From assembly GCA_052034865.1 (NCBI GenBank), contig JBPOIC010000018.1, positions 23,394-87,393 on the forward strand: a stretch of 64,000 bases of DNA, given 5' to 3'. The stretch is from Myxococcota bacterium (lineage in GTDB: Bacteria; UBA10199; JADFYH01). The first letter of the stretch is position 1; each line of letters opens with the position of its first letter. A program made the position numbers and the translations under genes. The notes beneath the pieces are model-generated. The model made no database searches and was not told where the DNA came from. It saw only the letters and a program-made list of their open reading frames with translations. This document shows positions 359-63,100 of this stretch, in pieces.

Positions 359-592
359 GACAAAGGCTTAGCGTGGGTGAAGAAAAATGGGAAGGGGGAG
401 AGTTAGAGGACAGAATTCAGGAGACAGTAGAAACCAGAAGAATAACCTTAATCCACTTTCTCGGCAGGACCATCCCGCCCTGACGGGCACCCCTCCATGG
501 AGGGGAATAAAAACAATCTGAATATAGAATACAGAATGCAGGAGAAAATCTGTGATCTCAATCTTTACTAGGGGCGTCCGCCGCAGGCGGAT

Positions 593-1963
593 TCATCCTC
601 CTACGACCACGGTCTTGATATTCACAAATTCCCGAATACCAAAATGAGAAAGTTCCCGACCATAACCCGAGGCCTTGATCCCTCCAAAGGGAAGACGCGG
701 ATCAGATCGAACCTGCTGGTTTACAAAACACGAACCGGCCTCCAGACGATGCGCGGCGATCGATTCTCCTTTTGATAGATCGCGGGTAAACACAGTCGCC
801 CCAAGCCCAAACGGGGTATCATTGGCGACTCGAATGGCTTGCTCTTCATCTGAGACTGGAATGATGGCCGCAACAGGGCCAAAGGTTTCTTCATCATAAA
901 CTGCCATTCCGGGTTTGACATCGGATAGCAAAGTGGCGGGATAAAAGGCGCCGCGACACTCCGGCAGTTGCCCACCTTTCAGACACACGGCTCCTTTTGA
1001 AATACTCTGAGCAACCTGACGATGCAGGGCATCGCGCAAGTCGATGCGCGCCAAAGGTCCCAGGGTTGTTTGAGTATCCAGAGGATCTCCCATACGCAAA
1101 CCCTGAAGGGCCTGAAGCATTTTATCCTCAAACAATTTCTTCAAAGACTCAACGATGATAAAACGCTTTGCAGCGATACAGCTTTGTCCGGTATTTCCAA
1201 AACGCGCGGCCATTGCCACCTGAACAGCGCTGTCCAGATCGGCATCTTCCAGAATGATAAAAGGATCGGATCCTCCCAATTCCAAAACCACTTTCTTGAG
1301 TGCCTGTCCGGCCTGAGCGGCGACCGTCCGTCCGACCTCGGTGCTGCCAGTTAAAGTAATAGCCTGAATAAAAGGATGAGTAATGAGAGGAGCTACGTGC
1401 TTGGCAGGAATCAACAGGCTGAGAAAAAGATTTTCCGGAAATCCTGCATCTTTAAAAATCTGCTCAATTGCCAGCGAACAGCCTGAAACATTGGAGGCAT
1501 GTTTTAAAAGGACGGAGTTTCCCGCCAGGAGAGCAGGAGCCGCAAAACGGATGACCTGCCAGAACGGATAGTTCCAGGGCATGAGGGCGAGCAGGGGACC
1601 TAAGGGCTCAAACGAAATATAGCTTTTAAAAGCGTCTGTCGCGATTTGCTCAGGAGTTAAAAAACGAGGCCCGTGTTCTGCATAGAAGCGGCAGTTAAGC
1701 GCGCATTTCTCGATCTCGCCGATGCCCTGTGCCAGGGGTTTTCCCATCTCTTTGGCAATCAGTCTTGCGAGAGATTCTTTGCGGGTCTCTAAAAGATCGG
1801 CTGCTTTTATCAGAAGCGTTGATCGTTCGGGAAAAGACCTGCGCTTCCAGAGCTCATACGCTTCTTTGCTTTTGATCAGCTTGTCTTGAATCTGCTCGGG
1901 TGTATGTTCGGCGTAAGTCGCCAGGATTTCTTCGGTGGAAGGATTGATGGATTTTAGAAACAT
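593..1963 (-). CDS. NAD(P)-dependent aldehyde dehydrogenase (succinate-semialdehyde dehydrogenase-like)
   Basis: 456 aa. ALDH motifs ELGGSDP (catalytic Glu) and GQSCIAAKR (catalytic Cys). Length matches short GabD/Sad-type enzymes. Confidence 0.85.
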   Translation of the reverse strand: MFLKSINPSTEEILATYAEHTPEQIQDKLIKSKEAYELWKRRSFPERSTLLIKAADLLETRKESLARLIAKEMGKPLAQGIGEIEKCALNCRFYAEHGPRFLTPEQIATDAFKSYISFEPLGPLLALMPWNYPFWQVIRFAAPALLAGNSVLLKHASNVSGCSLAIEQIFKDAGFPENLFLSLLIPAKHVAPLITHPFIQAITLTGSTEVGRTVAAQAGQALKKVVLELGGSDPFIILEDADLDSAVQVAMAARFGNTGQSCIAAKRFIIVESLKKLFEDKMLQALQGLRMGDPLDTQTTLGPLARIDLRDALHRQVAQSISKGAVCLKGGQLPECRGAFYPATLLSDVKPGMAVYDEETFGPVAAIIPVSDEEQAIRVANDTPFGLGATVFTRDLSKGESIAAHRLEAGSCFVNQQVRSDPRLPFGGIKASGYGRELSHFGIREFVNIKTVVVGG

Positions 1964-8731: not shown

Positions 8732-9949
8732 ATGACAGCCTCCCGCCCTCCCTCACGTGGAAAAGCCCGACTACGTGTCGTTAAATCCTCTGCCTCCGAT
8801 TTAAAATCGGGGGAAAACAAAATCGTCAATTTTCCACAAACGCTTGAAGAAAGACTCGCCTTGCTCGAGCGCGAGTATCAGGAGTCCATCCAGGAGCTCA
8901 GGAAGCAAGTAGATCAACTCAAAATGGAAAGAAGGCAGTACAAGGGAGAGAAACGTCTCAAACGGGAGCTCACCAAAATTACAAAACTCCTTGAAAAAAA
9001 ATCGCCCCTTCAAAATGAAATTTTTCCGACAGGATCCATTTCTGAAAAAAGTCTTTCTGTTTCGACACCTCGAAAGGCTGAGCCTCTTAAAATTCTGACC
9101 CATTATTTTCACCGCCTGACTTCTCTAAAAACCTATAGACGCCTGATTTTTGGAGTGACGCGTCTGGATCGGGAGGATTTTGATGAGTTTGGCCGAGATC
9201 CGGCGTTTGAGAAAAAGGTCCAGCCCTTTTTTCAGTTTCTCTACGATCAGTATTGGCGCGTTTCGGTGGAGGGTCTTCATCATATTCCAAACACAGGTCC
9301 TGCCCTGATTGTTGCCAATCACTCCGGAACGTTGCCGTTTGATGGTTCCATGATCCGAATGGCGGTGACGAATGATCATCCTTCCCGTCGGGATGTTCGT
9401 TTTCTCGTGGAAGATTTTGTCTATTACCTGCCCTTTGTTGGAACCTTCATGTATCGCATCGGCGGTGTGCGTGCTTCACAGGAAAATGCTGAACGTCTTC
9501 TCAATCACGGTCATTTGGTGACTGTTTTTCCGGAAGGCGAAAAAGGAATCGGGAAACGCTATAGCCACCGCTATCACCTCCAGCGTTTTGGTCGTGGCGG
9601 TTTTATCAAACTGGCACTAAGAGCCGGTGTGCCGATCATTCCCTGCACGGTCATTGGTGCCGAAGAAACCCATCCACTTTTATATCGGACCCATTTTTTG
9701 GCAAAACCATTTGGAGTGCCCTACGTCCCGATCACCCCAACGCTTCCCTGGCTCGGACCCTTGGGTCTCATTGGACTTCCAGCCAAATGGTCGATCTGTT
9801 TTGGAAAACCCATCGATCTTTCGATTCATGGAAAATCGGCTTTGAATGATGAACTTCTCATTCATCGTTTAAGCGAAGATGTGCGGCAGACGATTCAGGA
9901 GATGATCCGGGAAGGGCTTAAAAAACGTCGCTCCATCTGGTTTGGATAA
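8732..9949 (+). CDS. lysophospholipid acyltransferase (PlsC/LPLAT family) with N-terminal coiled-coil extension
   Basis: 405 aa. HX4D motif NHSGTLPFDG and FPEGEKG block. Strong RBS (aaaaggag). Confidence 0.7.
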   Translation: MTASRPPSRGKARLRVVKSSASDLKSGENKIVNFPQTLEERLALLEREYQESIQELRKQVDQLKMERRQYKGEKRLKRELTKITKLLEKKSPLQNEIFPTGSISEKSLSVSTPRKAEPLKILTHYFHRLTSLKTYRRLIFGVTRLDREDFDEFGRDPAFEKKVQPFFQFLYDQYWRVSVEGLHHIPNTGPALIVANHSGTLPFDGSMIRMAVTNDHPSRRDVRFLVEDFVYYLPFVGTFMYRIGGVRASQENAERLLNHGHLVTVFPEGEKGIGKRYSHRYHLQRFGRGGFIKLALRAGVPIIPCTVIGAEETHPLLYRTHFLAKPFGVPYVPITPTLPWLGPLGLIGLPAKWSICFGKPIDLSIHGKSALNDELLIHRLSEDVRQTIQEMIREGLKKRRSIWFG

Positions 9950-11357
9950 ATTTATGGATCCGTTCTCCTTTCTGTTTTCTACTTTCTCAAATTATCGCCT
10001 TCCATTTTTAATCCTCTGTTTATTTTTTCTCTCCTTTACCTTTTCTCCGGTCTTCGCAGGCTCCTCAACCTATGTAGAGAAGGATGAGACCGATTACAAT
10101 GGAGATGGAAAGCCGGATCGGATTCAAATTACCGAATATGATCAGTACAATAATCAGATTTCCTATTCATTAGACAGTAATGGGGATGGCAAACCAGAGT
10201 ATGAAGAAAAGAGTGCTTACGTTTACGATGCACAGGGGCGAGCTGTCTCGATTGCCTCCCAATACCAGTCGCAGTATGAACATGAAAAGATAGTGATATC
10301 GATGGAGTACGATCAGAATGGAAATCTGAAGACCGAGTTCGAGGATAACAATGGAGATGGAAAGAACGATTCCAGATGGGACCATACAGTTTGGGATCAA
10401 GGAGAAAAAAGTACTTTTTCAAGAGATCTGGAAGGGGATGGGAATTTTACGATTGTCCGTGAATCGGTAAGCGATGCCGAGGGAAACCCCATCTCGGAGC
10501 ACAGCGATTACAACCATGATGGAAAATGGGATCAAACCCTGAACTATTCCTACGATGATCGTGGAAATCTTGTGCAGTATTCTTCAGAGGAAGCGTTGGG
10601 GGATGGAACAAAAACATCTTCAGTGACCGAATACATTCATGATGATGCAGGGCATGTGTTGCAGGAAAATGTTTATGAAAATGGATCGGAAAAACCGTCC
10701 ATGGTTGTCAAAAGTCGTTATGACGAAGCGGGACGGTTGCTTGAAACGCTTCATGATCGGGAAGGGGATGGGACTCCCGATCGAAGTTTTGTTCTCAGTC
10801 GGAATGAGCAGGGAAATGTGGTTCTTGCTGTAAACAAAAGTGACAAGGGTGATGTGATTTTTCAGGAAGAAAAAGTTTACGACCCCACCGGAAAGATTCT
10901 CATCCAGTCGAAGCAATCATCAAATTTCAATCAGGAAGGAAAATTCTCTGAAACCATTACCAGTTTTTATAATGAACAAGGGTGGGTGATCCGTGAGATC
11001 ACACACTTTGAGGGTGGCAATCAACCGGATGAAATCACGACTTATGAATACGATGAGCACGGAAGGCTTTTGTCGTTTACCACCGACAGGAATGGAGATG
11101 GAAAACCGGACGTGATTTCAAAATCTAGTTACAAAGGGACAGCGCCTTCGTCGTTAGAAACTTCAAGTCTCAAACATCCTTCGGAAAGAATCGGAAAATC
11201 AACCAGCGAAGCCTCTCCTTCCAATCAAGCAGAATCCAAGTCGAAAGATTCACTCTACGGTCATCCTGTTCGGCCACAATACAAAAAATGGATGTTCCTA
11301 TTTATTCCAGTATTTTTAGGAGTGAGCCTGTTCTGGGTAAGACAAAAAAAGAAATAG
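9942..11357 (+). CDS. YD-repeat (RHS-like) protein with signal peptide and C-terminal TM anchor
   Basis: 471 aa. Repeated YDxxGR/YDxxGN units (YDAQGRAV, YDQNGNL, YDDRGNL, YDEAGRL, YDPTGKI, YDEHGRL) interleaved with NGDGKPD loops. Hydrophobic N-terminus, C-terminal MFLFIPVFLGVSLFWVRQKKK. Confidence 0.6.
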   Translation: MDKFMDPFSFLFSTFSNYRLPFLILCLFFLSFTFSPVFAGSSTYVEKDETDYNGDGKPDRIQITEYDQYNNQISYSLDSNGDGKPEYEEKSAYVYDAQGRAVSIASQYQSQYEHEKIVISMEYDQNGNLKTEFEDNNGDGKNDSRWDHTVWDQGEKSTFSRDLEGDGNFTIVRESVSDAEGNPISEHSDYNHDGKWDQTLNYSYDDRGNLVQYSSEEALGDGTKTSSVTEYIHDDAGHVLQENVYENGSEKPSMVVKSRYDEAGRLLETLHDREGDGTPDRSFVLSRNEQGNVVLAVNKSDKGDVIFQEEKVYDPTGKILIQSKQSSNFNQEGKFSETITSFYNEQGWVIREITHFEGGNQPDEITTYEYDEHGRLLSFTTDRNGDGKPDVISKSSYKGTAPSSLETSSLKHPSERIGKSTSEASPSNQAESKSKDSLYGHPVRPQYKKWMFLFIPVFLGVSLFWVRQKKK

Positions 11358-11395
11358 CGATTTGATTTTTCTTCTGATTTCCAAAATCTGTTTTC

Positions 11396-12733
11396 TTATT
11401 TCCCCAAAACTTTCTGAGCGATTTTCTTTCCGATCTCAACCCCGGGTTGATCGAAGGGATTGATGTTATAAAGCCCACCAGCCAGAACGGTCGTGATTTC
11501 GAGCAAAAATAAAAGCTGCCCCATCCCATATGCGTTCAGATGAGGAATCAGAAGCGTTGCTGAAGCTCGGCCGGCATCCTTCAGGGCCTGAGCGGTTGCT
11601 TCTGCCTCGGTTTGCAAAATGTACTCAACGCTTTTGGAACCAAGATAAGAAAGTGCGAGAGAAAGTTTTTGAGCTTCCGGAAGAAAAAGCGGTTTCTGAA
11701 AATTTTCTATCCTTAAAAAAAGGATGAATTTATCAGCGGGTCCTTCCATGTAGAGCTGAAGCTGGGAGTGCTGATCGCGTGGGCCGCACGCGATGACCGG
11801 TGTAGAGCCTGTGTGAGCCAATTCCCCAGCAAGAGAAATACGTTTTCCAACACTTTCGGCCCATAGCTGGGCATACCAGGCCGCGGTGGGCTCCAGAAAA
11901 TCAGAATAAGGCATCAGGACAAGAATGTTTTTTCTCTGCTGATCCATTAAGTATTGAAGGGCCGCAAGTGTAAAAGCTGGATTGAGCCAGAGATCTTCGA
12001 CAGCACACAGGGTGTCCATCCGTCTGGCTCCAGAAAGAAGCTCTTCGATTTTGATGCCGATCATGGCCGCAGGAAAAAGTCCGACTGCAGATAAAACGGA
12101 AAAGCGTCCTCCAACCCCGGGCGGAATTGTCAGAGACTGAAAACCTTCTTCTTTTACCCGCTTTCTTAAAAAACCGTATTCAGGATCAGTGGTGATGACG
12201 ACATGTTTTTTCCAACCCGCTCCCAGCGCCGCCTTCAGTTTTTCTTCAATAAGGATGAATTGGACATTGGCTTCCAGGGTTTCGCCCGATTTGCTGATGA
12301 CATTAAAGAGAGTTGTTTTGAAATCGATGAGATCAAAGAGGCTGGTTAGAAAGTCAGGATCAAGACTATCGCAAATAAAAAGGCGGGGAAGCTGATTTCT
12401 TTGAGAAGGAGATAAAAGATTATACAGTGGCCCTTTGAGCGCTGTTTGCAAGGCTTTGGCTCCCAAAGCCGATCCGCCTATTCCTAACACGACAACAGTA
12501 TCAAAGTTCTGCTGCAGGTTTTGGCTGAACTCTAAAATCTTTTGAGCTTCCTCTTCCTGATAGGGGAGGTTCAAAAAAGGAAGCTGTCCCATTTCCTTCA
12601 TGGCTTGCATTCCACGATGAGTTTTGATGAGACTTTCCTGAAGGGTCTCGATTTTGTGGCTTGCTTTTTTTTCGTCTTCCGCCTTTGAAGGAAAGGCGCG
12701 TCGATAATCCAGTCGAATGTCGGCGTGAGACAT
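11396..12733 (-). CDS. pgi: glucose-6-phosphate isomerase (short bacterial form)
   Basis: 445 aa. PGI signature ISKSGETLE and sugar-isomerase domain order. Confidence 0.85.
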   Translation of the reverse strand: MSHADIRLDYRRAFPSKAEDEKKASHKIETLQESLIKTHRGMQAMKEMGQLPFLNLPYQEEEAQKILEFSQNLQQNFDTVVVLGIGGSALGAKALQTALKGPLYNLLSPSQRNQLPRLFICDSLDPDFLTSLFDLIDFKTTLFNVISKSGETLEANVQFILIEEKLKAALGAGWKKHVVITTDPEYGFLRKRVKEEGFQSLTIPPGVGGRFSVLSAVGLFPAAMIGIKIEELLSGARRMDTLCAVEDLWLNPAFTLAALQYLMDQQRKNILVLMPYSDFLEPTAAWYAQLWAESVGKRISLAGELAHTGSTPVIACGPRDQHSQLQLYMEGPADKFILFLRIENFQKPLFLPEAQKLSLALSYLGSKSVEYILQTEAEATAQALKDAGRASATLLIPHLNAYGMGQLLFLLEITTVLAGGLYNINPFDQPGVEIGKKIAQKVLGK

Positions 12734-15991: not shown

Positions 15992-16237
15992 TTGAGAAAA
16001 ATATTTCTTCTCCTGTTTCTTCCCCTTGTTTTGCTCGGCTGTAATGATTCAACCTCGAGCACCCAAGGGCCATCGGCTCAAACATTTACCTCTCAGCTGC
16101 CAGGCCAGGCGACTGAGATGACTTCCGCCAATCATCGTCTTTTTCTCATGAACTCCCCTGTCAGTTTTCAGGGAACCTTAACCGGTGATCATCATAAAAT
16201 TCTGGATCCCCTGATTAAGTCTCACCAACCCAACTAA
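15992..16237 (+). CDS. small lipoprotein (TTG start)
   Basis: RBS aggagg 6 nt upstream of TTG. Lipobox LVLLGC after a hydrophobic signal. Confidence 0.5.
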   Translation: MRKIFLLLFLPLVLLGCNDSTSSTQGPSAQTFTSQLPGQATEMTSANHRLFLMNSPVSFQGTLTGDHHKILDPLIKSHQPN

Positions 16238-16292: not shown

Positions 16293-19091
16293 ATGCGCAA
16301 TAAAATCCTAATGACGAGTTTTCTATCTCTCGTCAGTTTTTTATCAATTCAGTCAACGCCTGCCATGGCCGCCCGAACAGAATTTCCCGTTCAAGGTGTT
16401 CTGACAGATGAAAATGGAACAGCCCTTTCTGGAGATCACACGATCACCCTCAATCTTTATTCAAGCTGTGAAGATGCTTCCGTCTTACTCACAGCGGATC
16501 AATCCGTCACGACCGATTCGGATGGCTTTTTCAAAACGTCCCTCGATTTAAGTACGGCTACCGATGAACAAGTCACTGCGATGAATCAAAGTGAAACCCT
16601 CTGTCTGGGAGTTGCGGTGGATGGAGATACTGAGCTGACACCTCGCATGGAATACAGCACGGTACCCTATGCCCGTGTTGCTCAAGTCGCCGATTTGGCG
16701 GATGTGGCAACCGTTGCCATGTCGATCGATTCCAGTGCCCTTTCCGGAATTTTGGGGAGCGGACTTGCCGCTTCTGGAAGCACGATTACCCTCGATACCA
16801 CTTCCAGCAATACCTGGTCTGGATCACAAAGCTACTCTGGTCAGGTCGTTTTATCGAAAGCCCCTAGTGATACAACTTCTGCTAATGCGAGTCTTTTGGT
16901 GAATCCGACTCTTACCGATGCCAATGCCAAGCTTTTTGCTCTGCAAAATTCCGGAACCGATAAATTTTCTGTAAATGGGAATGGAGATGTCACCATCGCC
17001 GGAGATTTAAGTGTGACTGGATCGATGACCTTGCCGAGCGACTCTGTTGTTACTGCCAATATCGTGGATGGAACCATTGCCGCAGCAGATTTGGCGAGTG
17101 ATTCCGTGACTACAGCTAAAATTCTGGACGGAACAATTGCTACTGCTGATATCGCTGCTGATGCAGTGACCTCTGCGAAAATTGCCGCAGATACAATTAC
17201 TGCTGGCGATCTTTCTGCAACCCTTACTTTTGCAGATGCAGATCTAATAAACTTTTCAGCCATCAACTCCTCTGGAACTGGCGAAGGTCTCATTCTTCCT
17301 CAAGGCGCTAACGTGAGCGCTGCAACGGCGGAAGGTCAGATTTCCTGGGATTCTGATGATGATACCCTTTATGTCGGAACGGGCTCTTCGGTTGTGAACA
17401 TTGGAAATCCTTTCGGAGCTGATATCGGAACAAGCGAAATAACGGATGGAACGATTGCTACCGCCGATCTTGCGAACAATGCCGTTACATCAGCGAAAAT
17501 TCTGGATGGTGAGATCGTCAACGCAGATATCAGTGGCTCTGCAGCGATTGCTTACAGCAAACTCAACCTGTCCGGAAGTATTGTGACTGGAGATATTACG
17601 GATGGCACGATTGCGGCCGCTGATCTAGCTTCAGGCGCCGTTACTTCAGCGAAGATTTTGGATGGTGAAATCGTCAATGGAGATATCAGTGCCTCCGCTG
17701 CGATCGCTTATAGCAAATTGAACCTTTCCAGCAGTATTGTGACCGGAGATATTACGGACGGGACAATAGCTAACGCAGATATCAGTGGCTCTGCAGCGAT
17801 TGCTTACAGCAAACTCAACCTGTCCGGAAGCATTTTGACTGGAGATATTACGGATGGGACGATTGCGACGGGTGACATAGCAGCCAATACCATTACAACA
17901 TCAAACCTCGCTGCAGCACTTACCTTTGCAGATGGGGATTTGATTAACCTGGCGGCTGTCAATGCTTCAGGAACATCGGAAGGTTTGATTCTTCCTCAAG
18001 CCGCGAACGTCAGTGCTGGGACGGCGGAAGGACAGATTTCGTGGGATAGCGATAACGATAGACTCTATGTCGGCGATGGGGCTTCGGTGGTCGAAGTAAG
18101 CAATCCTTTCGGATCGGCCGTCGATACGGCTGATATTACCGATGGAACGATCACCGGTGATGACATCAATTCAAATATTGCCGGAGATGGTTTGGTTTTA
18201 ACCTCTGCTTCTCCTGATACGCTTGATATTGGAGCCGGAACAGGAATTACAGTTTCTGCCAACGCGGTTGCCGTAGATCAATCCACGGCCTTCACGTGGA
18301 CGGGTCAGCAATCCTGGACTTCAACCGTCACTGCAACGGGGGCGATTCAGCAGGTGAATCTGACCTTGGGTGGCGATGCCGATGTCGATACCGTCGCTGG
18401 TCTTCAGGTGGCAGTAACCTCAGCCAACACAGGTGATGCGGATGTCGTTTACGGTGTGAATATCGATGACGTTACCTCTGCAGATGGAACTGTTCATGAG
18501 TACGCGATTGGGATCGGTGCGAACTGGGATGAGGTGTTTGATGTGAATGGGACCCTGATTTCATCCGCTGAACTGACATTGCTGGATGGTGGCGTTACGT
18601 TGGGTGAACTCACCAATTCAGGAACCCTCACCGCCACTACCGTTGATATCAATGGTGGTGCAATCGATGGAACCACTCTCGGTGCTTCAACCCCAGCTTC
18701 TGTGAAAGCGACAACATTGGAAACAACGGGTCAGACAAAGTTGGGTGGAAATGTTGTTTTTCAGACGACTGTGAATACCCTGGTGGATGCCGATACATTT
18801 ACTGTGGCTAAAATGTTAGGAAAGATCGTGACTTCAGATACGAGTGGAGCCGCAGTTGGAGTTACAACTGACACTGCAGCAAATATCGTGGCAGCAGTTA
18901 CCGGAGCTGCTGTTGGAGACACCCTTGAAATTATGGTGGTGGTTGAGGGAGGAAATGATCTAACCATCTCAGCAGGGTCGGATGTGACATTGGTGGGAGA
19001 TGCTTCCATCAACGCTAATACTTCACGTATTATTCGCTGCCGCATGACGAACGTTGGTGGTGGAACTGAAGCTGTCACCTGTTATCTGTAA
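16293..19091 (+). CDS. large secreted repeat-containing surface protein
   Basis: 932 aa, signal peptide (MRNKILMTSFLSLVSFLSIQSTPAMA). Thr/Ser/Gly/Asp-rich. Internal 52-56 aa repeats ITDGTIA.ADLA..AVTSAKILDGEIVN.DIS.SAAIAYSKLNLSGSIVTGD and a duplicated module ~120 aa long ...LTFADxDLIN..A.N.SGT.EGLILPQ.ANVSA.TAEGQISWDSD.D.LYVG.G.SVV...NPFG. Confidence 0.65.
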   Translation: MRNKILMTSFLSLVSFLSIQSTPAMAARTEFPVQGVLTDENGTALSGDHTITLNLYSSCEDASVLLTADQSVTTDSDGFFKTSLDLSTATDEQVTAMNQSETLCLGVAVDGDTELTPRMEYSTVPYARVAQVADLADVATVAMSIDSSALSGILGSGLAASGSTITLDTTSSNTWSGSQSYSGQVVLSKAPSDTTSANASLLVNPTLTDANAKLFALQNSGTDKFSVNGNGDVTIAGDLSVTGSMTLPSDSVVTANIVDGTIAAADLASDSVTTAKILDGTIATADIAADAVTSAKIAADTITAGDLSATLTFADADLINFSAINSSGTGEGLILPQGANVSAATAEGQISWDSDDDTLYVGTGSSVVNIGNPFGADIGTSEITDGTIATADLANNAVTSAKILDGEIVNADISGSAAIAYSKLNLSGSIVTGDITDGTIAAADLASGAVTSAKILDGEIVNGDISASAAIAYSKLNLSSSIVTGDITDGTIANADISGSAAIAYSKLNLSGSILTGDITDGTIATGDIAANTITTSNLAAALTFADGDLINLAAVNASGTSEGLILPQAANVSAGTAEGQISWDSDNDRLYVGDGASVVEVSNPFGSAVDTADITDGTITGDDINSNIAGDGLVLTSASPDTLDIGAGTGITVSANAVAVDQSTAFTWTGQQSWTSTVTATGAIQQVNLTLGGDADVDTVAGLQVAVTSANTGDADVVYGVNIDDVTSADGTVHEYAIGIGANWDEVFDVNGTLISSAELTLLDGGVTLGELTNSGTLTATTVDINGGAIDGTTLGASTPASVKATTLETTGQTKLGGNVVFQTTVNTLVDADTFTVAKMLGKIVTSDTSGAAVGVTTDTAANIVAAVTGAAVGDTLEIMVVVEGGNDLTISAGSDVTLVGDASINANTSRIIRCRMTNVGGGTEAVTCYL
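17040..18110 (+). repeat. intragenic tandem DNA repeats (about 168-bp units plus a larger duplicated module) inside the 16293-19091 gene
   Basis: The stretch 17523-17578 is repeated essentially identically at 17775-17830. The motif ggagatattacggatgg(c/g)acgattgc recurs near 17590, 17750 and 17842. Confidence 0.7.
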
Positions 19092-19117
19092 TAAAGAATA
19101 TCAGAGCAGACTTAAAG

Positions 19118-19148
19118 GGCGGTGGAGAAATCCACTGCCCTTTTTTTG
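19118..19148. terminator. bidirectional rho-independent terminator between the repeat-protein gene and dhs
   Basis: gggcggtgga-gaaa-tccactgccc (10-bp stem with one G.U) followed by ttttttt, and preceded by A-rich sequence on the other strand. Confidence 0.8.
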
Positions 19149-19164
19149 TCCTTTTTTTCATTTT

Positions 19165-20142
19165 TTACCACCCCATCACATACGCAAACACAAGGGGAGC
19201 AACAATCGAGGCATCGGACTCAATAATGAATTTGGGGGTATCGATCCCGAGTTTACCCCAGGTGATTTTTTCGTTGGGAACGGCGCCAGAATAAGAGCCG
19301 TAGCTCGTGGTCGAATCGCTGATCTGGCAGAAATAGCCCCACAGTGGGACATTGTCGCGCTGGAGATCCTGATGCAGCATAGGAACAACACAGATCGGGA
19401 AATCACCGGCAATTCCTCCGCCAATCTGGAAAAAGCCGATCGGATTTTTCATAGCAGTGTTCGTGTACCACTCGGCGAGCTCCATCATGTATTCAATCCC
19501 TGTACGCACGGTATGCACGTTTTTCACATCTTGGCTGATGCAATGTCCGGCATACATGTTTCCGAGGGTGGCATCTTCCCAGCCTGGCACAAAAATCGGA
19601 AGATTCTTTTCGGCCGCGGCCACCATCCAGCTATTTTTTGGGTCAATCTGATAAGAGCCTTTCAGTTTTCCACTTTTTAAAATTTTATACATGAACTCGT
19701 GGGGAAAATACCGTTCACCTTTTTTGTCGGCTTCAACCCATTCTTCTAGCACGGCGGATTCAATCCGGCGCATAGCCTCATGTTCTGGAATGCAGGTGTC
19801 TGTTACGCGGTTCATGTGACGATCGAGGAGGGCTTTTTCATCGGCGGGGGTTAAGTCACGATAGTTGGGAACTCGGGCATAATGATCGTGGGCGACAAGA
19901 TTGAAAATATCTTCTTCTAAATTGGCACCGGTGCAGGTGATGGCGTGGACCTTATCCTGACGAATCATTTCAGCCAGCGAGAGCCCCAACTCGGCCGTGC
20001 TCATTGCACCAGCGAGTGTGAGAAACATTTTTCCACCCTGATTCAGGTGAGTTTTATAGCCCTCGGCGGCATCGACTAAGGCAGCAGCGTTGAAATGACG
20101 GTAGTGGTATCTGATAAAATCGGAAATGGGTGATGTTTTCAT
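19165..20142 (-). CDS. deoxyhypusine synthase-like protein
   Basis: Start placed at the internal ATG 20142 (RBS aggat upstream), giving MKTSPISDFIRYHY... (326 aa). Strong similarity to DHS (NAD-binding ...GGIAGDFPICVVPML..., ...TLAGAMSTAELG...). Confidence 0.85.
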   Translation of the reverse strand: MKTSPISDFIRYHYRHFNAAALVDAAEGYKTHLNQGGKMFLTLAGAMSTAELGLSLAEMIRQDKVHAITCTGANLEEDIFNLVAHDHYARVPNYRDLTPADEKALLDRHMNRVTDTCIPEHEAMRRIESAVLEEWVEADKKGERYFPHEFMYKILKSGKLKGSYQIDPKNSWMVAAAEKNLPIFVPGWEDATLGNMYAGHCISQDVKNVHTVRTGIEYMMELAEWYTNTAMKNPIGFFQIGGGIAGDFPICVVPMLHQDLQRDNVPLWGYFCQISDSTTSYGSYSGAVPNEKITWGKLGIDTPKFIIESDASIVAPLVFAYVMGW

Positions 20143-20253
20143 AGTGAAAATCCTAATGGCTAAAAGTTTTAAGAATCTCAAGGGGAAAGTTTTTTGGTAA
20201 TGAAATCGTAAATAGAACGATTTGAGTCTACCATCCTTCAATCAAGAACTCGG

Positions 20254-40123: not shown

Positions 40124-43100
40124 TTACAGCGAGCAACAATCCTCCATCACCCTCTTCAAATAAGTTTCGTGTTCAAACAATTGCTTTTGATCAAAATCAA
40201 AATCATATTTCAGATTTGCCAGAACAAAATAAAGCTGGGCTTTGAGAACTGGGTGATTGAGCATTTTCGAGGCCGCCAGGCAGTAGGTTTTTATCTGAAA
40301 TTCAAAATCATGCGCCAAAATATTCAGGTTCTCTCTTCCGACATGGGTGTGGGTTTTGTAATCGATCACGACCCAATCATCGTCCAGTCGAATCAGACGA
40401 TCCATCGCTCCGCGAAGACGATAGGGTGGATAAGACAAAAGAAAGGGGATCTCGGAATAACCGTCCTCAGCCTGAAGAATTTTTCTGAAGGTTTCGTCCT
40501 CCAGTGTTCTTTGAATGGATCGAATCAGAATTTGCCTGGCATTTTCATCCAGAGCACGATCGGGCAGAAAATCATTCGATCGATCGAGCAATCGATGCAG
40601 GTCTTTCTCGCTCTTGCTTTGGCTCAGCTCATAAAGAAACTGATGGAGAAAAATTCCCTTTTCGATGGGATCGATGTTCTCGGCATTTAAAGCAGATGAA
40701 AGATCGGTTGAAGAATTCTTTTTCTGTGGACGTGCTTCGACAGGAAGAAAACTCCGATAGCGTGAAAAAAAATCTTTAGGTGAGCGGATGAAACACTCGA
40801 GCTGAGTGACGCTAAAATCGGTTTGATGCAGTCTGAAGGAATATAAATCGGCTTGTTTGGTTTTTGTTCTGTTCTCAAAATCTTCAGTCTGGGCTGAAAA
40901 TAATAGTGTACTTTCGGATGCCTCATTTTGCTCTTTTTCGGCAGCGTCCGGATTCCAGATCGGAAGCAGATGTTTTCTTAAATGATTTCTATAGCTTTCC
41001 GACTTTTCATTTTCTTCCGGTAAAAAACCAAAGATCAGCTTTTGTGTGGCGCGGGTTGTGGCGACATAAAAAACCCGACGTGCTTCTTCTTCATCCGTAA
41101 TTTTTTTTCTCACCTTCCATTCTTTTAAAATCCCTGATTCCTCTTTTTGCACCTTCAGGCCCGTGTAGGGTTTGGGAAGATAGAGTGCGGGGATTTTTTC
41201 AAGAGCCTGGGCGATGGGTAAGGAATTGTTGGAATCCCGATAGGATAAATCCGGCAAAAAAACGATTGGCAGATCGAGTCCCTTGGTTTGATGAATCGTC
41301 ATGAAGGTTACGGATGGACCGGTGTGCGAAAAATCACTGAAGGGTTTGATTCTGTCTGTTTGGGTCTGCAACATTTGAAGATAATGAAGATATTCCTCAA
41401 GGGCTCCGTGGTTTTTCGTTTCCCATTCCTGGGTGAGGTTTAGAAACTGCAGTATATTTCCTGCCTTTTCTGCAAGAAAAGATTCCGTTTCGTAAAGAGT
41501 CACAAGACCAGTGCGGTATAAAATTTCTTTTAACAAAAGATAAGGAGAGGTTTTTGCTGAAAGGGTTTTAAGCCACTCGGTAAAAGGATGGAGGGAATGC
41601 CAGGTCTCCTCCCTGTGTTTCTGAAAAGCAAAGGCCATGAGCTCTTCATCTGGAACCCCCGCGAGGGGAGAGCGCAGGATACCAATGGCTGCGAGGGCGT
41701 CGTCTGGTTTTGCAATCAGTTTCAGGGCGTGGATGAGATCAAGAATCTCCTGTCGGGCAAGAAGCGAATCCCCTTTTTGAATTCTGGAAGTAATTCCTGT
41801 TCTACGTAAGGCCTGACGATAGGTTGAAGCAGGGTTGAGGGTGCGAAAACAAAAATAAATCTCATTGGGTGAGAATCCTTCCCGGATAAGACTCTGCACT
41901 CTCAACGCCATGGCATCGGCCTCCCGCTGGCGTTTTTCTTCGGCACCTAATGTCTTTTTCGATTTTTCCCCGCGGTTTTTTTTCGATGTAATTTCTTCTT
42001 CCAGCTCTTCCACCCAAAGACGCTCAATTCCTCCTTCGTTTTTTTCGGAGTGGAGCGGGACATAATCCAGAAAAAGATTTCTGAAAAAAGAATTTACCCA
42101 ATCAATCTGACAGTTGGGGCTTCTGAAATTCTGGGTGAGATAAACGGTTTTGCCACCGCTATTTTCGATGAGTTTCTGAAAATGCTCAAAGATGTGAGGT
42201 TTGGCTCCGCGAAATCCGTAAATCGATTGTTTAGGATCTCCGACGATGGCCAGATGTTTTCCTGGCGCGATCAAAGCTTCGCTGACGTTGATCTTTTCAG
42301 CTCCATCCGCACTTTCATTTTTATCAAGCGGAAGGCCCAGCAGGAGTTTAAGCAATTTTTCCTGAGCGGCATTGGTATCCTGAAATTCATCCACCAAAAA
42401 GGCCTTCCATATTTTTTGGTAGTGAGCGCGAATGTGTGGAAAATGACTCAAAAGAAAAATGGCCTTGTCCTCAAGATCTTTAAAATCAAGTCCCTGTTTT
42501 TCTTTTTTAAGCTCGCTGTAAGTCTGAAGGGTTGATCTGAAAATCCTGTTGAGGCTTTCCCAAAGCTCTTTTTCTACCTGGGTTCCGGCTTGAGAAAGTG
42601 CATCGTCCGGAAATTCTTTCCAGTCGAGCCAGTTTTTAAGCATGGCTAAGAGCTGCTCTTTAAGATTCGACCAGCCATAGGCGCGAATCAGCGTTTTGAG
42701 ATCGTCATTTTTTTCTTTCAGAATTCTGCCCAGATTTTTTTCCAGGGCTTCATGAGAAAGCAGGGCCGCCTCATTTTCATCCATTACTTGAAAGGAGGGG
42801 TCCAGATGGATAAACAGGGCGGATTCTCTGAGTATCCGCGTCGCCAGGGAGTGCAGGGTCGTGATCGGAGAAAAAGTCAGCTCTTCAAGAATCCAGTCAA
42901 AATCCGCCGCTACCCATTTTGATGAATAACCAAACACCGCTTCAGTTCCATGAAATCTGGCCTTTTGAATCAGATCTTCAATGCGCTCGCGCAACTCGCT
43001 TGCGGCCTTGTCGGTGAAAGTGGCGGCGACTATTTCGCAGGTTTTAAATTTTTCTTTCAGAATCAGGGCAAGAAAATGAGAAGCCAGAACCTGCGTCTTT

Positions 43101-43189
43101 CCGCAGCCCGCTCCTGACAGGATACACACGGGATGATCAATATTCAGAATGGCTTCCTGCTGTTCAGGTGTTGGTTTTTTGAGTGTCAT
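40124..43189 (-). CDS. addA: ATP-dependent helicase/nuclease subunit A (AddA/RexA, UvrD-like)
   Basis: 1021 aa. Walker A ILSGAGCGKTQVL, UvrD helicase blocks, C-terminal RecB-type nuclease motif VVIDYKTH. Confidence 0.9.
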   Translation of the reverse strand: MTLKKPTPEQQEAILNIDHPVCILSGAGCGKTQVLASHFLALILKEKFKTCEIVAATFTDKAASELRERIEDLIQKARFHGTEAVFGYSSKWVAADFDWILEELTFSPITTLHSLATRILRESALFIHLDPSFQVMDENEAALLSHEALEKNLGRILKEKNDDLKTLIRAYGWSNLKEQLLAMLKNWLDWKEFPDDALSQAGTQVEKELWESLNRIFRSTLQTYSELKKEKQGLDFKDLEDKAIFLLSHFPHIRAHYQKIWKAFLVDEFQDTNAAQEKLLKLLLGLPLDKNESADGAEKINVSEALIAPGKHLAIVGDPKQSIYGFRGAKPHIFEHFQKLIENSGGKTVYLTQNFRSPNCQIDWVNSFFRNLFLDYVPLHSEKNEGGIERLWVEELEEEITSKKNRGEKSKKTLGAEEKRQREADAMALRVQSLIREGFSPNEIYFCFRTLNPASTYRQALRRTGITSRIQKGDSLLARQEILDLIHALKLIAKPDDALAAIGILRSPLAGVPDEELMAFAFQKHREETWHSLHPFTEWLKTLSAKTSPYLLLKEILYRTGLVTLYETESFLAEKAGNILQFLNLTQEWETKNHGALEEYLHYLQMLQTQTDRIKPFSDFSHTGPSVTFMTIHQTKGLDLPIVFLPDLSYRDSNNSLPIAQALEKIPALYLPKPYTGLKVQKEESGILKEWKVRKKITDEEEARRVFYVATTRATQKLIFGFLPEENEKSESYRNHLRKHLLPIWNPDAAEKEQNEASESTLLFSAQTEDFENRTKTKQADLYSFRLHQTDFSVTQLECFIRSPKDFFSRYRSFLPVEARPQKKNSSTDLSSALNAENIDPIEKGIFLHQFLYELSQSKSEKDLHRLLDRSNDFLPDRALDENARQILIRSIQRTLEDETFRKILQAEDGYSEIPFLLSYPPYRLRGAMDRLIRLDDDWVVIDYKTHTHVGRENLNILAHDFEFQIKTYCLAASKMLNHPVLKAQLYFVLANLKYDFDFDQKQLFEHETYLKRVMEDCCSL

Positions 43190-60105: not shown

Positions 60106-63100
60106 ATGACAGATCCTATTTCTGCGAAGGTTCCAGGTCCGGATTCCTCAGGTGCTCTCGATCCGTATAGTACAACTCATCCTCCCATGAGCCAAAGTAG
60201 GAATGAGGGTCTTCCTTTCAATCCTTTCCCAACTGTTGCCGAGCGCGATCGATTTGCACACCTGATTCCAGAGCCGTCTTTACCGCCGTTTCATTTTCGC
60301 CTTTGGGATCCACGAAATTCCAGATTTCTTCTTAATCCTCCTCAGGATTTATCTTCCTCTTCCATTTCATCCGATGATTCCGATGCTCTTCAATTGGCAG
60401 CGGTTCTGTTTTGCGATGCACTCGCACTTATCGTTCGGGATACATGGAAAAAAATGGATACAGGTGCCGTCTTAAATGATGACCCTTCTATTCATCTTCA
60501 CTTGAGTCTTTTTGAAAGCAGGACGGAACGGGCCAGATGGCGTGAGAAGGTAAGCTCCTTGTTAAGCACACCCCATATTAAGAAAAGTATGGGAGAGCGC
60601 GATGCTGTCGCGGCAGTAAAACAGATCATTCTGCTTCAGCAGATGGCCTATAGTGAACCAGCTGCTTTTGCATTGTTGACGGAGCTTCGTGCATCTCTGG
60701 TTGATGCGATGAATAATCTCCGTTCTCAGGCATCAGGATTTTCAACGCCCATGCTGGTCAGAAATCTTACTGTCCAGATTCGACTGTTGGATACGGCCTG
60801 GGATGATATTGTTTCGCAAAAAATTAAGAGGGCTCGTGAAAATATGGTTCGGGCTCCATCAACCTCGGTTGATTTGTTTCTGGAGATTCGAATGGAAATC
60901 ATTCGTGTCACAAAAACGGGAAGGGCGGCAGAGAAACAATTGCAGGGAATCAGGAAACTAACAGCCGGATTTCTCGAGTATCAGGAAGGTTTTGCAATAG
61001 AAAAAGACACGCTTCTTGCACAAGTGGATCAGGCCTTTGATGAAGAACTGATAGCGAGTGTGGATCTCTTAAAGGAAGAAGCAGCAACGAAACCAGAGGC
61101 TGTCTTAAGTTTGGCATCCTTATCTGATGTCATCCGAAAATATGAAGAGAAGATTGCTGAGATGATGCCTGATAAACCCCCGCGAGACCTCGCTCACCTA
61201 CACGTCGAACTTGGGTTCAAATCTCACCAGGCCTGTCTTGCAATCCGGCCAGCCTATGTTTTCAATGAGGATACTTCTCCTTCCCATTTAAGAAAAATGA
61301 TCCAGGTATTGGGGTTTCTTGCCAAAAGAGAAAACCCTTCGGCTCTTCTCGAATTGAAAAAAATTGCTGTTAGCACGGCAAGTAAAGATGCAGTGCTTGT
61401 AATCGCTAAATTGGCTGATGATGAAGCAAAGCCCAATCTTCGACTCGAGGCAGAGTTGGTACTTTACTCAACCCTTCGTGAAATTGATGAAGTTCATGTT
61501 TTTACTCAGCCAGGCAGAGTTTGCGCTGAAGAAGTGCAGCGCCACATTTTACAACAGGACAAATCTAGAAAAGGACGGGTATCCCCTTCTCAAATCATTC
61601 AAAAATATTTTCAGGATAATGATCGGATTTATTCTGACTCACCACTTCCACGAGTGCAGAAGTCTCCTCCCCGTATCAGCCAGTGGCAGGGTTTTTCTAA
61701 ATTAAAGGCTGAAGGGAATTTGATTTCTGCCATGGAAATCCTTGGAGGACAGGAACGAATTGCTGAAATAATTTCTGAATGGTTAAGAGATGGAAAGATG
61801 GAAATGGGTGGCTTACGCTCCGAAGTAGAATTTGCAAATATGATTGCTCAAAGGGTTCAGTCTAACCTTAAGGAAATGAGCGCAGACCAGATGACAGATT
61901 TTATTGCGGGGGAGTTACTGCAAACGAACGAGGAGGAAGCGATTGGAGTCATTAGTCCAAGATTCATGGTGGATCTGCTGAAGGAAAATGCAAGGTATCA
62001 GCCCATGGCCACTGCCCAACTCGCCCGCCTGCAAAGTCGTTTGATTTTGACTGATAGCATGACAGGTCCGGAAAGTCCTCTCTATCAGCTTGTTGATGAA
62101 ATCCATCATTATTTAACGAATCTCGATCCTGCATTTAACGAGGAAAATCCTTTGAGTGCAGGGGCCCTGGAAGGATTGGCGATTGAAGGAAATGAGCGGG
62201 GCCTTGACCATTGGGTAAGAATGGCGGCCCAGGGAGGTCAGAAGAAAGACCTCGTTGTCCTGGCAAGAATCGCGGATCGGGGCGCCCAATCGATTCGTCC
62301 TCGCGCTGTGCTTAAGCTTCAGATGGTTTTATATGCCAAAGCCGAAGAGGGAAATGAGGCGGCAGCTCATCTCCTCAAATCCATTCTGGAAAAAGGAAAT
62401 CAATGTCGATCTTTAGAGAGCTTGGTTGAACAAGAATTGCAAAGTAAAATTTCTTCGGAAGGACCCCCTTCTGCAGTGACTGCTTATCTCAAAACACATC
62501 CATCTGGAGTTCGCCTTTCTCCGGCACTTCGAGAAGAGCTTTTGAAATCTCCTACCCGACTTGGCAGGTTGTATCATTTATACCAGCATGTTCTCGATTC
62601 AGAATCACCGGATGCCCTCTACCTTTTTGGAATTATCGCCTCCGAAGAACCTGATGATCCGGCTGTGATTCATGCACGTCATCTCGCCATTTTCATCCCA
62701 AGGAATCTAATCCTAAAAGCCTTGATGACTGAAGATGATTTGGAAGCAGAAAACCCACGTCAAGAAAATTTGTTAAGATTTTTATCTGTTTATGATCAGC
62801 TGTTTGAGGAGCATCGAGAAAAAGAAGAAAGAGTTCTAAGAACAACCAGGATCAGTGATTCGGGACTCATGAAATTGAGGTTAGGATGGCACCAAAAAGC
62901 TCTTGAGGCTTTAAAGGACGCTGCAGATCAGGAAAATCAGGAAAAACAATATCCTGCCGAACGATCTCCTCCTCTAGCTCGAAACGAGCAAAGCGATCCG
63001 CTGCCCGGTGAAGGTAAAGACAGAGTTGAATGGACTGAACCTCCTAGGATCATCCATGGCAAGGCCGATCTTCCAGGAAATGCTGGAAGCTATAAGGTGG

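Follow-up and report, generated by a model that had tools for sequence, protein, structure and literature searches.

The MAT fibres of Bdellovibrio bacteriovorus, which has 21 MAT genes, carry a signal peptide and a conserved β-rich domain of ~130 aa, are trimeric and end in variable tips; their surface anchor or binding partner is still unidentified (Caulton et al. 2024, PMC10769870). Among phage virion appendages, gp28 of cyanophage P-SCSP1u is a trimeric tail fibre, whose part matching the shaft described below is unresolved in the cryo-EM structure (PMC10575957), and the Pa223 spike gp52 (9NY6) is a homotrimer with a C-terminal TNF-fold knob.

In the 64-kb stretch of DNA analysed here (the window), a chromosomal, non-prophage gene encodes a long fibre that is akin to the tail fibres of phages, as do the MAT genes (Table 1). 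As in MAT proteins, a Sec signal peptide is followed by a conserved β-rich domain, known here from sequence and model: at the position of the MAT N-domain, the window protein has a conserved β-sandwich of ~110 aa, a likeness of position and fold class only. C-terminal tips are swapped in both groups: S74, TNF-like and lectin-like in MATs; S74, BclA_C, collar, depolymerase and a phrog_673 knob in the family of the window protein. Unlike MAT fibres, the window shaft is composed of repeats of 10, 20 and 52 aa, of a type also known from the fibres of podoviruses and from capsid fibres, and its tip is a knob of the head-decoration type, not reported for MATs. No sequence of the solved MAT fragments (Bd2133, Bd3182, Bd1334, Bd2439, Bd2734, Bd2740) was matched in phmmer searches against all PDB sequences, run with the whole protein (cut-off E<=1) and with its repeat region (E<=10). 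Nor does the main text of the MAT paper mention a conserved upstream lipoprotein, such as is seen in the closest relatives of the window gene (PMC10769870).

With phage tail fibres (gp28, 8I4M; PHROGs 28766, 892 and 2012), the protein shares homologous shaft repeats and the arrangement of a shaft with a distal binding domain. However, a signal peptide and a cellular N-domain replace the virion-attachment domain, and the gene lies outside any phage structural module. It also resembles phage capsid spikes in its phrog_673 knob, for which Pa223 gp52 is the best solved fold, and its 20-aa repeats match the capsid-associated head decoration protein orf16 of Legionella phage LME-1 (9EG4, chain 9eg4_H; E 0.0055). 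Whereas capsid spikes and PF09956-phrog_673 proteins are 140-300 aa long and sit on capsids via an N-terminal attachment or cement domain, the window knob terminates a 900-aa exported cellular fibre.

BclA of the Bacillus anthracis exosporium has an N-terminal anchoring region, a filament whose length is set by the number of repeats and a trimeric TNF/C1q-like C-terminal knob. The window protein has the same succession of a (proposed) N-terminal anchoring region, repeat shaft and C-terminal knob, and a true BclA_C tip (Pfam PF18573) is present in its relative P0038. It differs in lacking GXX (collagen-like) repeats, in leaving BclA_C unmatched, and in cell type and assembly pathway; the likeness of the two knobs is at fold level only, via the spike with its TNF-fold C-terminal knob. 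A trimeric autotransporter adhesin was considered and rejected: Pfam gave no match for a YadA-type anchor or for head and stalk motifs, and the C-terminus is the phrog_673 knob.

Table 1. Features of the fibre locus, with positions in the window
Feature	Position	Strand	Basis or remark
Small lipoprotein gene, 81 aa, TTG start, lipobox LLG/C	15992..16237	+	ORF list; 55 nt upstream of fibre gene
Fibre gene, 932 aa + stop	16293..19091	+	ORF list; sequence; homologue search
Sec (SPase I) signal peptide, aa 1-26, predicted cleavage AMA/A	16293..16370	+	Read from sequence
N-terminal β-sandwich domain, aa 27-135, proposed cell-proximal anchor	16371..16697	+	AF2; relatives; HMM
Mid module, aa 136-250, TWSGSQSY ... 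NGTDKFSVNGNGDVTIAGDL	16698..17042	+	Common to 9 relatives, 36-56% identity
Antisense ORF, 150 aa, regarded as spurious	16841..17293	-	Mechanical ORF list only
Two 20-aa shaft repeats, IVDGTIAAADLASDSVTTAK / ILDGTIATADIAADAVTSAK	17058..17177	+	Repeat family D2
Module A, aa 296-382, ...AEGQISWDSDDDTLYVGTGSSVVNIGNPFG...	17178..17438	+	68% identical to module B; common to 11 relatives
Shaft units R1, R2, R3	17439..17846	+	Unit alignment; homology to gp28 shaft
96-nt high-identity tract, source copy	17520..17615	+	3 mismatches vs 17772-17867, 59 nt exact
96-nt tract, second copy, starting exactly at the R3 '20-codon deletion' junction	17772..17867	+	Alignment
Module B with repeat head, aa 519-614	17847..18134	+	Unit and module alignments
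Distal shaft, aa 615-823: degenerate mid-like module, ELTLLDGG / TVDINGGAIDGTTLGASTPA motifs	18135..18761	+	Relatives
C-terminal knob (tip) domain, aa ~824-932	18762..19088	+	phrog_673; AF2; Foldseek
Intrinsic-terminator-like hairpin, 13-bp stem, T tract, after fibre gene	19114..19153	+	Strong; closes the probable operon

Architecture of the fibre protein

The N-terminus of the protein, MRNKILMTSFLSLVSFLSIQSTPAMA/A, displays the n, h and c regions and the AXA site of a typical Sec signal peptide; the layout (MRNK, hydrophobic core, AMA/A) was read by eye rather than with a dedicated predictor, and equivalent signal peptides directly precede the N-domain in homologues. The ORF with its signal peptide and the compositional bias reported in an earlier, sequence-only reading of this DNA are both real (T 124, S 99, G 95 and D 86 of 932 residues), with A 127 on top. 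Neither Pfam nor NCBIfam yielded a family above threshold, a recognisable enzymatic domain or a known sorting or anchor signal, T9SS and other C-terminal sorting signals included. Homologues number 2149 at E<=1e-3, the sole 100% match being the protein itself; the nearest is 36-46% identical over partial length only, and no close relative was found in the databases. The fibre and the ten other window proteins looked up are all (11/11) singletons in clustering at 90% identity. DUF5907 (PF19264), a repeat of unknown function for which a literature search found no publication, is annotated in many of the top-ranking homologues; the PF19264 model does not match the window protein even at E<=1, and in the relative P0004 it is marginal (26.8 bits vs a cut-off of 27) and falls on a different stretch. 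Hundreds of homologues conserve the sense frame of the fibre gene, within which the antisense ORF lies in its entirety; as nothing supports this ORF, it is probably an artefact.

The N-domain was modelled by AF2 as all-β plus one helix (pLDDT 88-96 over aa 31-120), and it directly follows the signal peptide in 26 of 120 listed relatives. Its HMM matches cellular fibre genes only and found nothing among 7,589 ORF segments from 143 viral loci, which at the level of sequence points to a domain specific to cellular organisms. Members of this domain family are common in MAGs that bear the labels Bacteroidetes, Kapabacteria and Ignavibacteriae. A Foldseek search of the PDB with the full-length monomer model returned generic Ig-like matches only (E>0.01).

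The tail-fibre-like flavour noted earlier is borne out by the shaft. Tail-fibre and minor-tail families of PHROGs match it at E 4e-13 to 2e-4 (phrog_28766, 4.6e-8; phrog_2012, 3.5e-6; phrog_892, 2e-4), its units match gp28 among PDB sequences (8i4m_e, E 5.1e-5), and 204 matching stretches in viral contigs (IMG/VR) encode relatives; the related proteins P0123 and P0129 likewise match the tail-fibre family phrog_892. The mid module has a degenerate second copy at ~aa 660-770, and significant matches to aa 607-760 are confined to the mid modules of P0011 and P0016, while aa 742-818 of the distal shaft are 62-68% identical to P0122 and P0127. Structure prediction gave confident folds for the N-domain and the tip, whereas the monomer model of the shaft is of low confidence (pLDDT 33-55 beyond aa 130, about 60-79 in modules A and B).

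The tip is matched by the phrog_673 profile (E 5.1e-12, aa ~813-931). Pfam lacks a model for this domain, which PHROGs calls 'head scaffolding protein'. Its family comprises 3112 cluster representatives at E<=1e-3, mostly proteins of 140-380 aa, among which the knob profile recovers the window protein at E 2e-43. Many of the best word-index matches are fused to PF09956 (capsid cement), and one source, JGI, labels such fusions 'RecA/RadA family phage recombinase'. In viral contigs, 63 loci encode the knob domain, and in one of them (L089) its gene stands between the head protease gene and that of the major head protein, unlike the fibre gene, which is not in a phage head module. On phages, the knob belongs for the most part to small proteins of the head module; it is added to capsid-surface proteins or placed at fibre ends. 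The AF2 model of the knob (69 sequences; pLDDT ~90-97 over the domain, pTM 0.74) has 165 Foldseek matches in BFVD at E<=1e-3, and its best solved match is the Pa223 capsid spike 9ny6_C (E 2.9e-4, a moderate TM of 0.46), by which the modelled knob qualifies as a fold relative of that trimeric spike. No solved sequence homologue was found: a profile built from the tip alignment matched nothing in the PDB but a DARPin, spuriously.

Repeats at the DNA level

The 52-aa units described in the sequence-only reading exist as R1 (17439-17594) and R2 (17595-17750), together with a 32-aa unit, R3 (17751-17846). At the nucleotide level, R1 and R2 are 81% identical, with 18 synonymous-only differences in 52 codons. 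Modules A and B are 68% identical at both amino acid and nucleotide levels, with 26 synonymous-only codon differences; the duplication proposed earlier (aa 296-382 vs 528-614) stands, but the repeated module measures 87 aa, or ~96 with its head, and not ~120 aa. TRF detects just one array in the gene, with 1.9 copies at 83%. The description of the gene as carrying near-identical tandem DNA repeats is overstated, since the sole near-identical DNA is one tract of 96 nt whose two copies are not adjacent.

The two copies of this tract are 252 nt apart and in frame, with sharp borders and flanks of ~50-60% identity. They include an exact run of 59 nt (17520-17578 = 17772-17830), which contains the identical 56-nt repeat already noted; against a unit background of ~81%, such a run has a probability of ~4e-6 per register, and the longest exact run at other unit offsets is 14 nt. 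Their mismatches (T/C, G/T and C/G) comprise two synonymous changes and one V->L, none of them adenine-specific. The 60-nt length difference of R3, previously read as a clean 20-codon deletion, is genuine, but deletion is not its only possible cause: because the tract starts at the junction and equals the 96 nt of R3 in length, an in-frame copy or conversion explains the difference equally well. Of the recent recombination or slippage that had been proposed, one recombination, conversion or duplication event is thus visible in the 96-nt tract, whereas the other repeats are old. The gene was also considered as a target of a diversity-generating retroelement (DGR, Mtd-like); this was rejected on the pattern of mismatches, the location of both copies in the shaft and a weak Mtd_N match (15 bits vs a cut-off of 26.3) which falls on the module B motif.

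The label 'size-variable' is not supported by this comparison: most repeats have diverged at the nucleotide level, at synonymous sites above all, which is largely the pattern that the sequence-only reading had itself named as speaking against its proposal, and even the young tract is 3% diverged. The 121 family members compared have anywhere between 0 and 11 of the 52-aa units, a range that reflects evolutionary plasticity and not strain-level switching. Nothing in these mostly old, diverged repeats speaks for a hypervariable gene that switches its length.

Upstream lipoprotein gene and genomic context

The small lipoprotein gene is probably the first gene of a two-gene operon with the fibre gene. 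Shine-Dalgarno sequences are present at this gene pair, with AAAGGAGG 4 nt ahead of the TTG start codon, and the spacer between the genes has no terminator-like site. Each of the seven loci of the closest subgroup has a small lipobox ORF directly upstream of the fibre gene and on its strand. Its position is thus conserved, whereas conservation of its sequence is weak and partial: a leave-one-out HMM recovers the window ORF (E 6e-5 among 23,272 ORF segments), but over the seven loci three are recovered at E<=1.3e-3, a fourth at 0.016 and three not at all. The lipoprotein belongs to no Pfam family. Locus L084 additionally encodes an OmpA-like protein, another lipoprotein-like protein and another fibre; the more distant N-domain fibres of L087 and L233 are not accompanied by a lipoprotein gene.

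The context of the fibre gene is one of housekeeping genes and not of a prophage. It is flanked by pgi, a thiolase gene and lipB on one side and by a deoxyhypusine-synthase-like gene and aidB on the other, and its GC content is like that of its surroundings. Homologues elsewhere are also found amid housekeeping genes, as in L081, beside rpsI, rplM and pyrG. The deoxyhypusine-synthase-like neighbour is 72-85% identical across many phyla. A contig scan with that gene found no synteny, and of the metagenome scans, one gave no match and another 2 distant loci only. Within the window, tblastn with the fibre protein detected the gene itself and no other copy of its modules; a 1028-aa ORF (60106-63192), tried as a candidate paralogue, was rejected for want of a significant BLASTP match.

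Relatives of the fibre and exchange of tips

The closest relatives are from MAGs labelled 'Deltaproteobacteria bacterium'. Region-by-region BLAST against the 120 listed relatives shows that the modules are shared to very different extents: the repeat blocks are found in 101 and 118, the N-domain in 26, modules A/B in 11 and the mid module in 9, while no relative shares the C-terminal 170 aa. Relatives sharing the shaft or the N-domain have Phage_depo_C, BclA_C, Collar+Gp10_C or Peptidase_S74 as tips. The family evolves by tip swapping and by gain and loss of shaft units, the 96-nt copy or conversion being one such event still visible.

Discussion

We consider it rather likely that the protein is a trimeric adhesive fibre of the cell surface which resembles the MAT fibres of Bdellovibrio and is perhaps anchored by a lipoprotein, that is, a bacterial surface fibre of a known kind; the envelope type and the lifestyle of the source organism are assumptions of this reading. 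A chromosomal operon of two genes would supply a small lipoprotein and a Sec-exported fibre, itself a mosaic in which modules shared with phage virion appendages are joined to a domain peculiar to cellular organisms. The signal peptide would direct the fibre across the inner membrane, and the β-sandwich N-domain would form the cell-proximal end, probably docking on a component of the envelope for which the co-transcribed lipoprotein is an obvious candidate. Some 700 residues of 10-, 20- and 52-aa repeats and ~90-aa modules may build an elongated stalk, most likely homotrimeric, trimerisation being probable from homology to trimeric phage fibres and from the likeness of the tip fold to that of a trimeric spike. 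The ~110-aa β-sandwich knob at the far end would be the ligand-binding tip, which probably recognises a glycan on the surface of another cell or of a substrate.

A narrower version, in which a predator or epibiont uses the fibre to recognise prey or host cells as Bdellovibrio does, seems unlikely. The architecture is the same (signal peptide, β-rich N-domain, fibre, swappable tips, including S74 and TNF-like ones in relatives) and the closest relatives come from MAGs labelled deltaproteobacterial, but the crystallised MAT fragments in the PDB show no sequence match, the window holds one such gene where B. bacteriovorus has 21, and the N-domain family extends to MAGs with Bacteroidetes, Kapabacteria and Ignavibacteriae labels. 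Were the protein instead a non-adhesive component of a surface layer or matrix (S-layer-like or a sheath), its knob serving in self-assembly only, the Ala/Thr/Ser/Gly/Asp-rich composition and the absence of Pfam families above threshold and of recognisable enzymatic domains would fit. The distal tips are nevertheless interchangeable and include known binding or enzymatic ones (depolymerase, C1q-like, collar), which points to a ligand-directed end, and the occurrence of the phage knob on capsid-surface proteins or at fibre ends also speaks against such a layer protein, which we judge very unlikely.

That shaft and tip are both phage-type modules might suggest a true virion tail fibre left in the chromosome by a prophage or tailocin. 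This origin is barely credible for a protein with a Sec signal peptide and an N-domain met in none (0/143) of the viral loci, encoded between housekeeping genes at a GC content like that of its surroundings, with homologues in similar company (L081) and no second copy of its modules in the window. A contingency-type adhesin, frequently changing length through ongoing recombination or slippage between near-identical DNA repeats, is improbable as well. The direct repeat (59 nt exact, 96 nt at 97%, in frame, 252 nt apart) is long enough for an occasional RecA-dependent deletion of 84 codons, and relatives do differ in unit number (0 to 11), but it is the one tract of this quality: the other repeats are 68-81% identical with many synonymous differences and exact runs <=14 nt, TRF sees just 1.9 copies at 83%, and 3 of the 96 positions of the young tract have already diverged, which argues against continual homogenisation.

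Within the preferred reading of an adhesive surface fibre, it is conceivable, if rather doubtful, that the lipoprotein and the β-sandwich-N-domain fibre together constitute an anchoring device for phage-derived fibres in diderms, the lipoprotein tethering or chaperoning a trimeric N-domain at the outer membrane and a capsid-spike knob from phage head-decoration proteins acting as the cell-recognition tip. If true, such a lipoprotein tether would answer the open question of the anchor of the Bdellovibrio MAT fibres. Two leads follow from the locus: the upstream lipoprotein, present in 7/7 loci of the closest subgroup, is a testable anchor candidate, and the tip domain is otherwise found in >3000 clusters of mostly short proteins. 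Bacterial surface fibres made from phage tail-fibre parts have only recently been recognised, with the MAT fibres, and the window locus presents a MAT-like construction principle in an unrelated, uncultured lineage. It documents that capsid appendages and tail fibres of phages exchange modules with one another and with cellular adhesins.

The fibre gene and its repeats

The fibre gene is a real gene with the boundaries given in the sequence-only reading, and its product carries the signal peptide and the biased composition described there: read from the sequence, the N-terminus, MRNKILMTSFLSLVSFLSIQSTPAMA/ARTEF, follows the plan of a Sec/SPase I signal peptide, with a charged stretch, a hydrophobic stretch and an AXA site, and 57% of the residues are Ala, Thr, Ser, Gly or Asp. 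Searches of Pfam and NCBIfam gave no model above threshold. The 52-aa units and the duplicated module are also both present. The description of these as near-identical tandem DNA repeats applies to a single 96-nt tract. Units R1 and R2 share 81% nucleotide identity, with synonymous-only differences in 18 of 52 codons, and modules A and B 68%, with 26 synonymous-only differences; TRF reports only one array (1.9 copies at 83%), and the longest exact run at the unit offsets of 96, 156 and 408 nt does not exceed 14 nt. The reported 56-nt identical repeat exists and is slightly longer, at 59 nt. The 96-nt tract that includes it has three mismatches (T/C, G/T and C/G; two synonymous, one Val/Leu) and sharp edges, with flanks roughly 50-60% identical, and is the only young repeat tract in the gene.

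This tract begins exactly at a junction previously taken for a clean 20-codon deletion, and its length is that of R3. R3 may therefore just as well be recent, copied in frame from the end of R1 and the head of R2 or patched in from them by gene conversion. The history of the gene is one recent recombination event over old, diverged duplications. Since most of the repeats are old and diverged, the nucleotide data give no support to the idea of a size-variable protein.

Features of the fibre locus and other genes of the window
Feature	Position	Strand	Description
Lipoprotein ORF	15992-16237	+	81 aa; TTG start; strong Shine-Dalgarno AAAGGAGG; lipobox LLG/C (Cys17); immediately 5' of fibre gene
Fibre gene	16293-19091	+	932 aa
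R1	17439-17594	+	52-aa unit
R2	17595-17750	+	52-aa unit
R3	17751-17846	+	32-aa unit
Modules A and B	aa 296-382 and 528-614		duplicated module
Exact DNA repeat	17520-17578 and 17772-17830		59 nt
Young repeat tract	17520-17615 and 17772-17867		96 nt
Terminator	19114-19153		13-bp stem, after fibre gene
Deoxyhypusine-synthase-like gene	19165-20241	-
AddA-type gene	40124-43189	-	helicase-nuclease (UvrD and PD-(D/E)XK)
ORF overlapping AddA-type gene	43164-45827	-	887 aa; presumably AddB-like partner
Long ORF	60106-63192	+	1028 aa; no Pfam family

Mosaic architecture of the fibre protein

A search of 5.8 billion proteins returned 2149 homologues, among which the fibre itself was the sole close match; after it, identity falls to 36-46% and covers only parts of the protein. 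None of the 11 window proteins looked up (the fibre and ten others) clusters with another protein at 90% identity; all are known from a single NCBI contig of 162,427 bp, and the lineage is therefore without a close relative in the searched collections. Region-by-region comparison with 120 listed relatives reveals a mosaic. The N-domain (aa 27-135) occurs in 26 of them, each time right behind the signal peptide, the 'mid' module (aa 136-250) in 9, the two repeat blocks in 101 and 118, and modules A/B in 11, while the last 170 aa are matched in none of the 120. The tips of the relatives vary (Phage_depo_C, BclA_C, Collar and Gp10_C, or Peptidase_S74), and 121 family members have between 0 and 11 copies of the 52-aa unit each.

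The N-domain (aa 31-120) is modelled by AF2 as a beta-sandwich with a pLDDT of 88-96, for which Foldseek found only generic Ig-like matches in the PDB. Matches to its HMM are confined to cellular fibre genes: none was found among 7,589 ORF segments from 143 viral loci carrying the shaft repeats or the tip. Two cysteines at aa 34 and 78 (YSSCED and LCLG, encoded within 16371-16697) are kept in 6/7 members of the closest subgroup, the loci whose fibre genes most resemble that of the window, and are absent from the wider family, which suggests a subgroup-specific disulfide in the exported domain.

The repeats of the shaft match tail-fibre and minor-tail families in PHROGs, and relatives of aa 251-620 are encoded by 204 IMG/VR stretches, for example by a viral gene (in L152) with matches to tail-fibre PHROGs. 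Two PDB sequences are matched by the repeat region: gp28, the fibre of cyanophage P-SCSP1u (E 5.1e-5), and orf16 of 9EG4, the capsid entry of Legionella phage LME-1 (E 0.0055). The former is a trimeric tail fibre, and its structure leaves the distal part, with the stretch matching the window fibre, unresolved (PMC10575957). The AF2 monomer of the shaft is of low confidence, as expected for an obligate oligomer, and gives at most a tentative fold.

The tip and the phrog_673 family

The fibre ends in ~110 aa that align with the C-terminal portion of phrog_673 (E 5e-12). The family of this domain (listed proteins P0124-P0387; viral loci L089-L151) comprises more than 3000 clusters and has no Pfam model; a word-indexed profile search gave 331 members, and an exhaustive one 3112 cluster representatives (1166 at E<=1e-10). 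Most members are proteins of 140-380 aa, a few being tandem arrays or ends of long proteins, and many of the best word-index matches are fused to the phage cement domain PF09956. The domain is encoded in 63 viral loci, in one of which (L089) its gene lies between those of the head maturation protease and the major head protein.

From a 69-sequence alignment, AF2 models the tip confidently as a beta-sandwich (pLDDT ~90-97 within the domain; pTM 0.74). A PDB profile search with the tip alignment found no sequence homologue among solved structures, and the closest fold among these structures is that of the capsid spike of Pseudomonas phage Pa223 (9ny6_C, E 2.9e-4). This homotrimeric spike comprises an N-terminal attachment region, a triple beta-helix and a TNF-fold knob at the C-terminus, and its authors suspect that it serves for adsorption (bioRxiv 10.1101/2025.06.11.659172). 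Among the predicted viral structures of BFVD, 165 match the tip at E<=1e-3, and several of these are terminal parts of minor-tail, Stf-repeat, Mtd_N or collagen-repeat proteins. Foldseek matches also include proteins of giant viruses (Marseillevirus, Clandestinovirus, Hyperionvirus). PHROGs labels phrog_673 'head scaffolding protein', and JGI labels the PF09956 fusions 'predicted RecA/RadA family phage recombinase'; contrary to both, the cement-domain fusions, together with a modelled fold like that of a capsid spike, suggest that the domain is a surface knob.

An upstream lipoprotein gene and the genomic neighbourhood

No terminator-like site was found between the lipoprotein ORF and the fibre gene. 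A small same-strand lipobox ORF lies immediately 5' of the fibre gene in 7/7 fetched loci of the closest subgroup (the window, L081, L083, L084, L085, L086 and L088), unannotated in L084 and L088. The mature lipoproteins have in common a weak C-terminal motif, S-x-N-Y ... Y-x-x-x-D-P-hydrophobic. Leave-one-out HMM searches of 23,272 ORF segments recovered the window ORF (E 6e-5), L081 (9e-4) and L086 (1.3e-3), L083 only at 0.016, and missed three of the seven. Conservation is thus strong in position but modest in sequence. The more distant N-domain fibre loci L087 and L233 are without the lipoprotein. L084 carries a second cassette (9181-12421), with a lipoprotein-like ORF (9181-9498), a gene for an OmpA-like outer-membrane protein (9485-10831) and, from 10859 to the contig end, another fibre gene that has this N-domain too. 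In L082 (1-5460), the gene of the homologue P0014 comes after a further fibre-like ORF (at least 790 aa, truncated by the contig end) and before PemK/MazE/PIN toxin-antitoxin genes and a gene for a DUF4143 ATPase; the AAA_14/DUF4143 gene type also adjoins the fibre cassette of L081.

The fibre locus has an unremarkable GC content and lies between one group of genes with pgi, a thiolase and lipB and another with the deoxyhypusine-synthase-like gene, aidB and a hydrolase. Searching the 64-kb window by tblastn with the fibre protein revealed no other copies of its modules, and the 1028-aa ORF, which has no significant BLASTP match to the fibre, is unrelated. The deoxyhypusine-synthase-like protein keeps 72-85% identity across phyla (594 confirmed matches, in Acidobacteriota, Gemmatimonadota, Verrucomicrobiota, Bacteroidota, Myxococcota and others), which may reflect either unusually high conservation or horizontal spread.

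A candidate surface appendage

The best-supported reading is that of a Sec-exported, probably homotrimeric cell-surface fibre, for which we infer trimerisation, surface exposure, adhesion and the lipoprotein's role. The N-domain would form the cell-proximal end, a modular phage-type shaft would lie between it and the tip, and the distal knob would bind a ligand; the co-encoded lipoprotein may anchor the fibre or aid its assembly. Other identities were considered: the defining features of a prophage remnant were sought and not found, nor does the gene show those of a DGR target, or the fibre those of a trimeric autotransporter or a BclA-type filament.

The mosaic adhesive trimer (MAT) fibres of Bdellovibrio combine a signal peptide, a conserved ~130-aa beta-rich domain and a trimeric fibre with swappable tips, their anchor being still unidentified (PMC10769870). 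The design principle is the same, and the fibre is at most a candidate member of that superfamily; a PDB sequence search found no match between the fibre protein and the solved MAT fragments. The fibre adds an uncharacterised variant to a kind of bacterial appendage that has only recently been recognised, and its conserved lipoprotein partner is worth testing.
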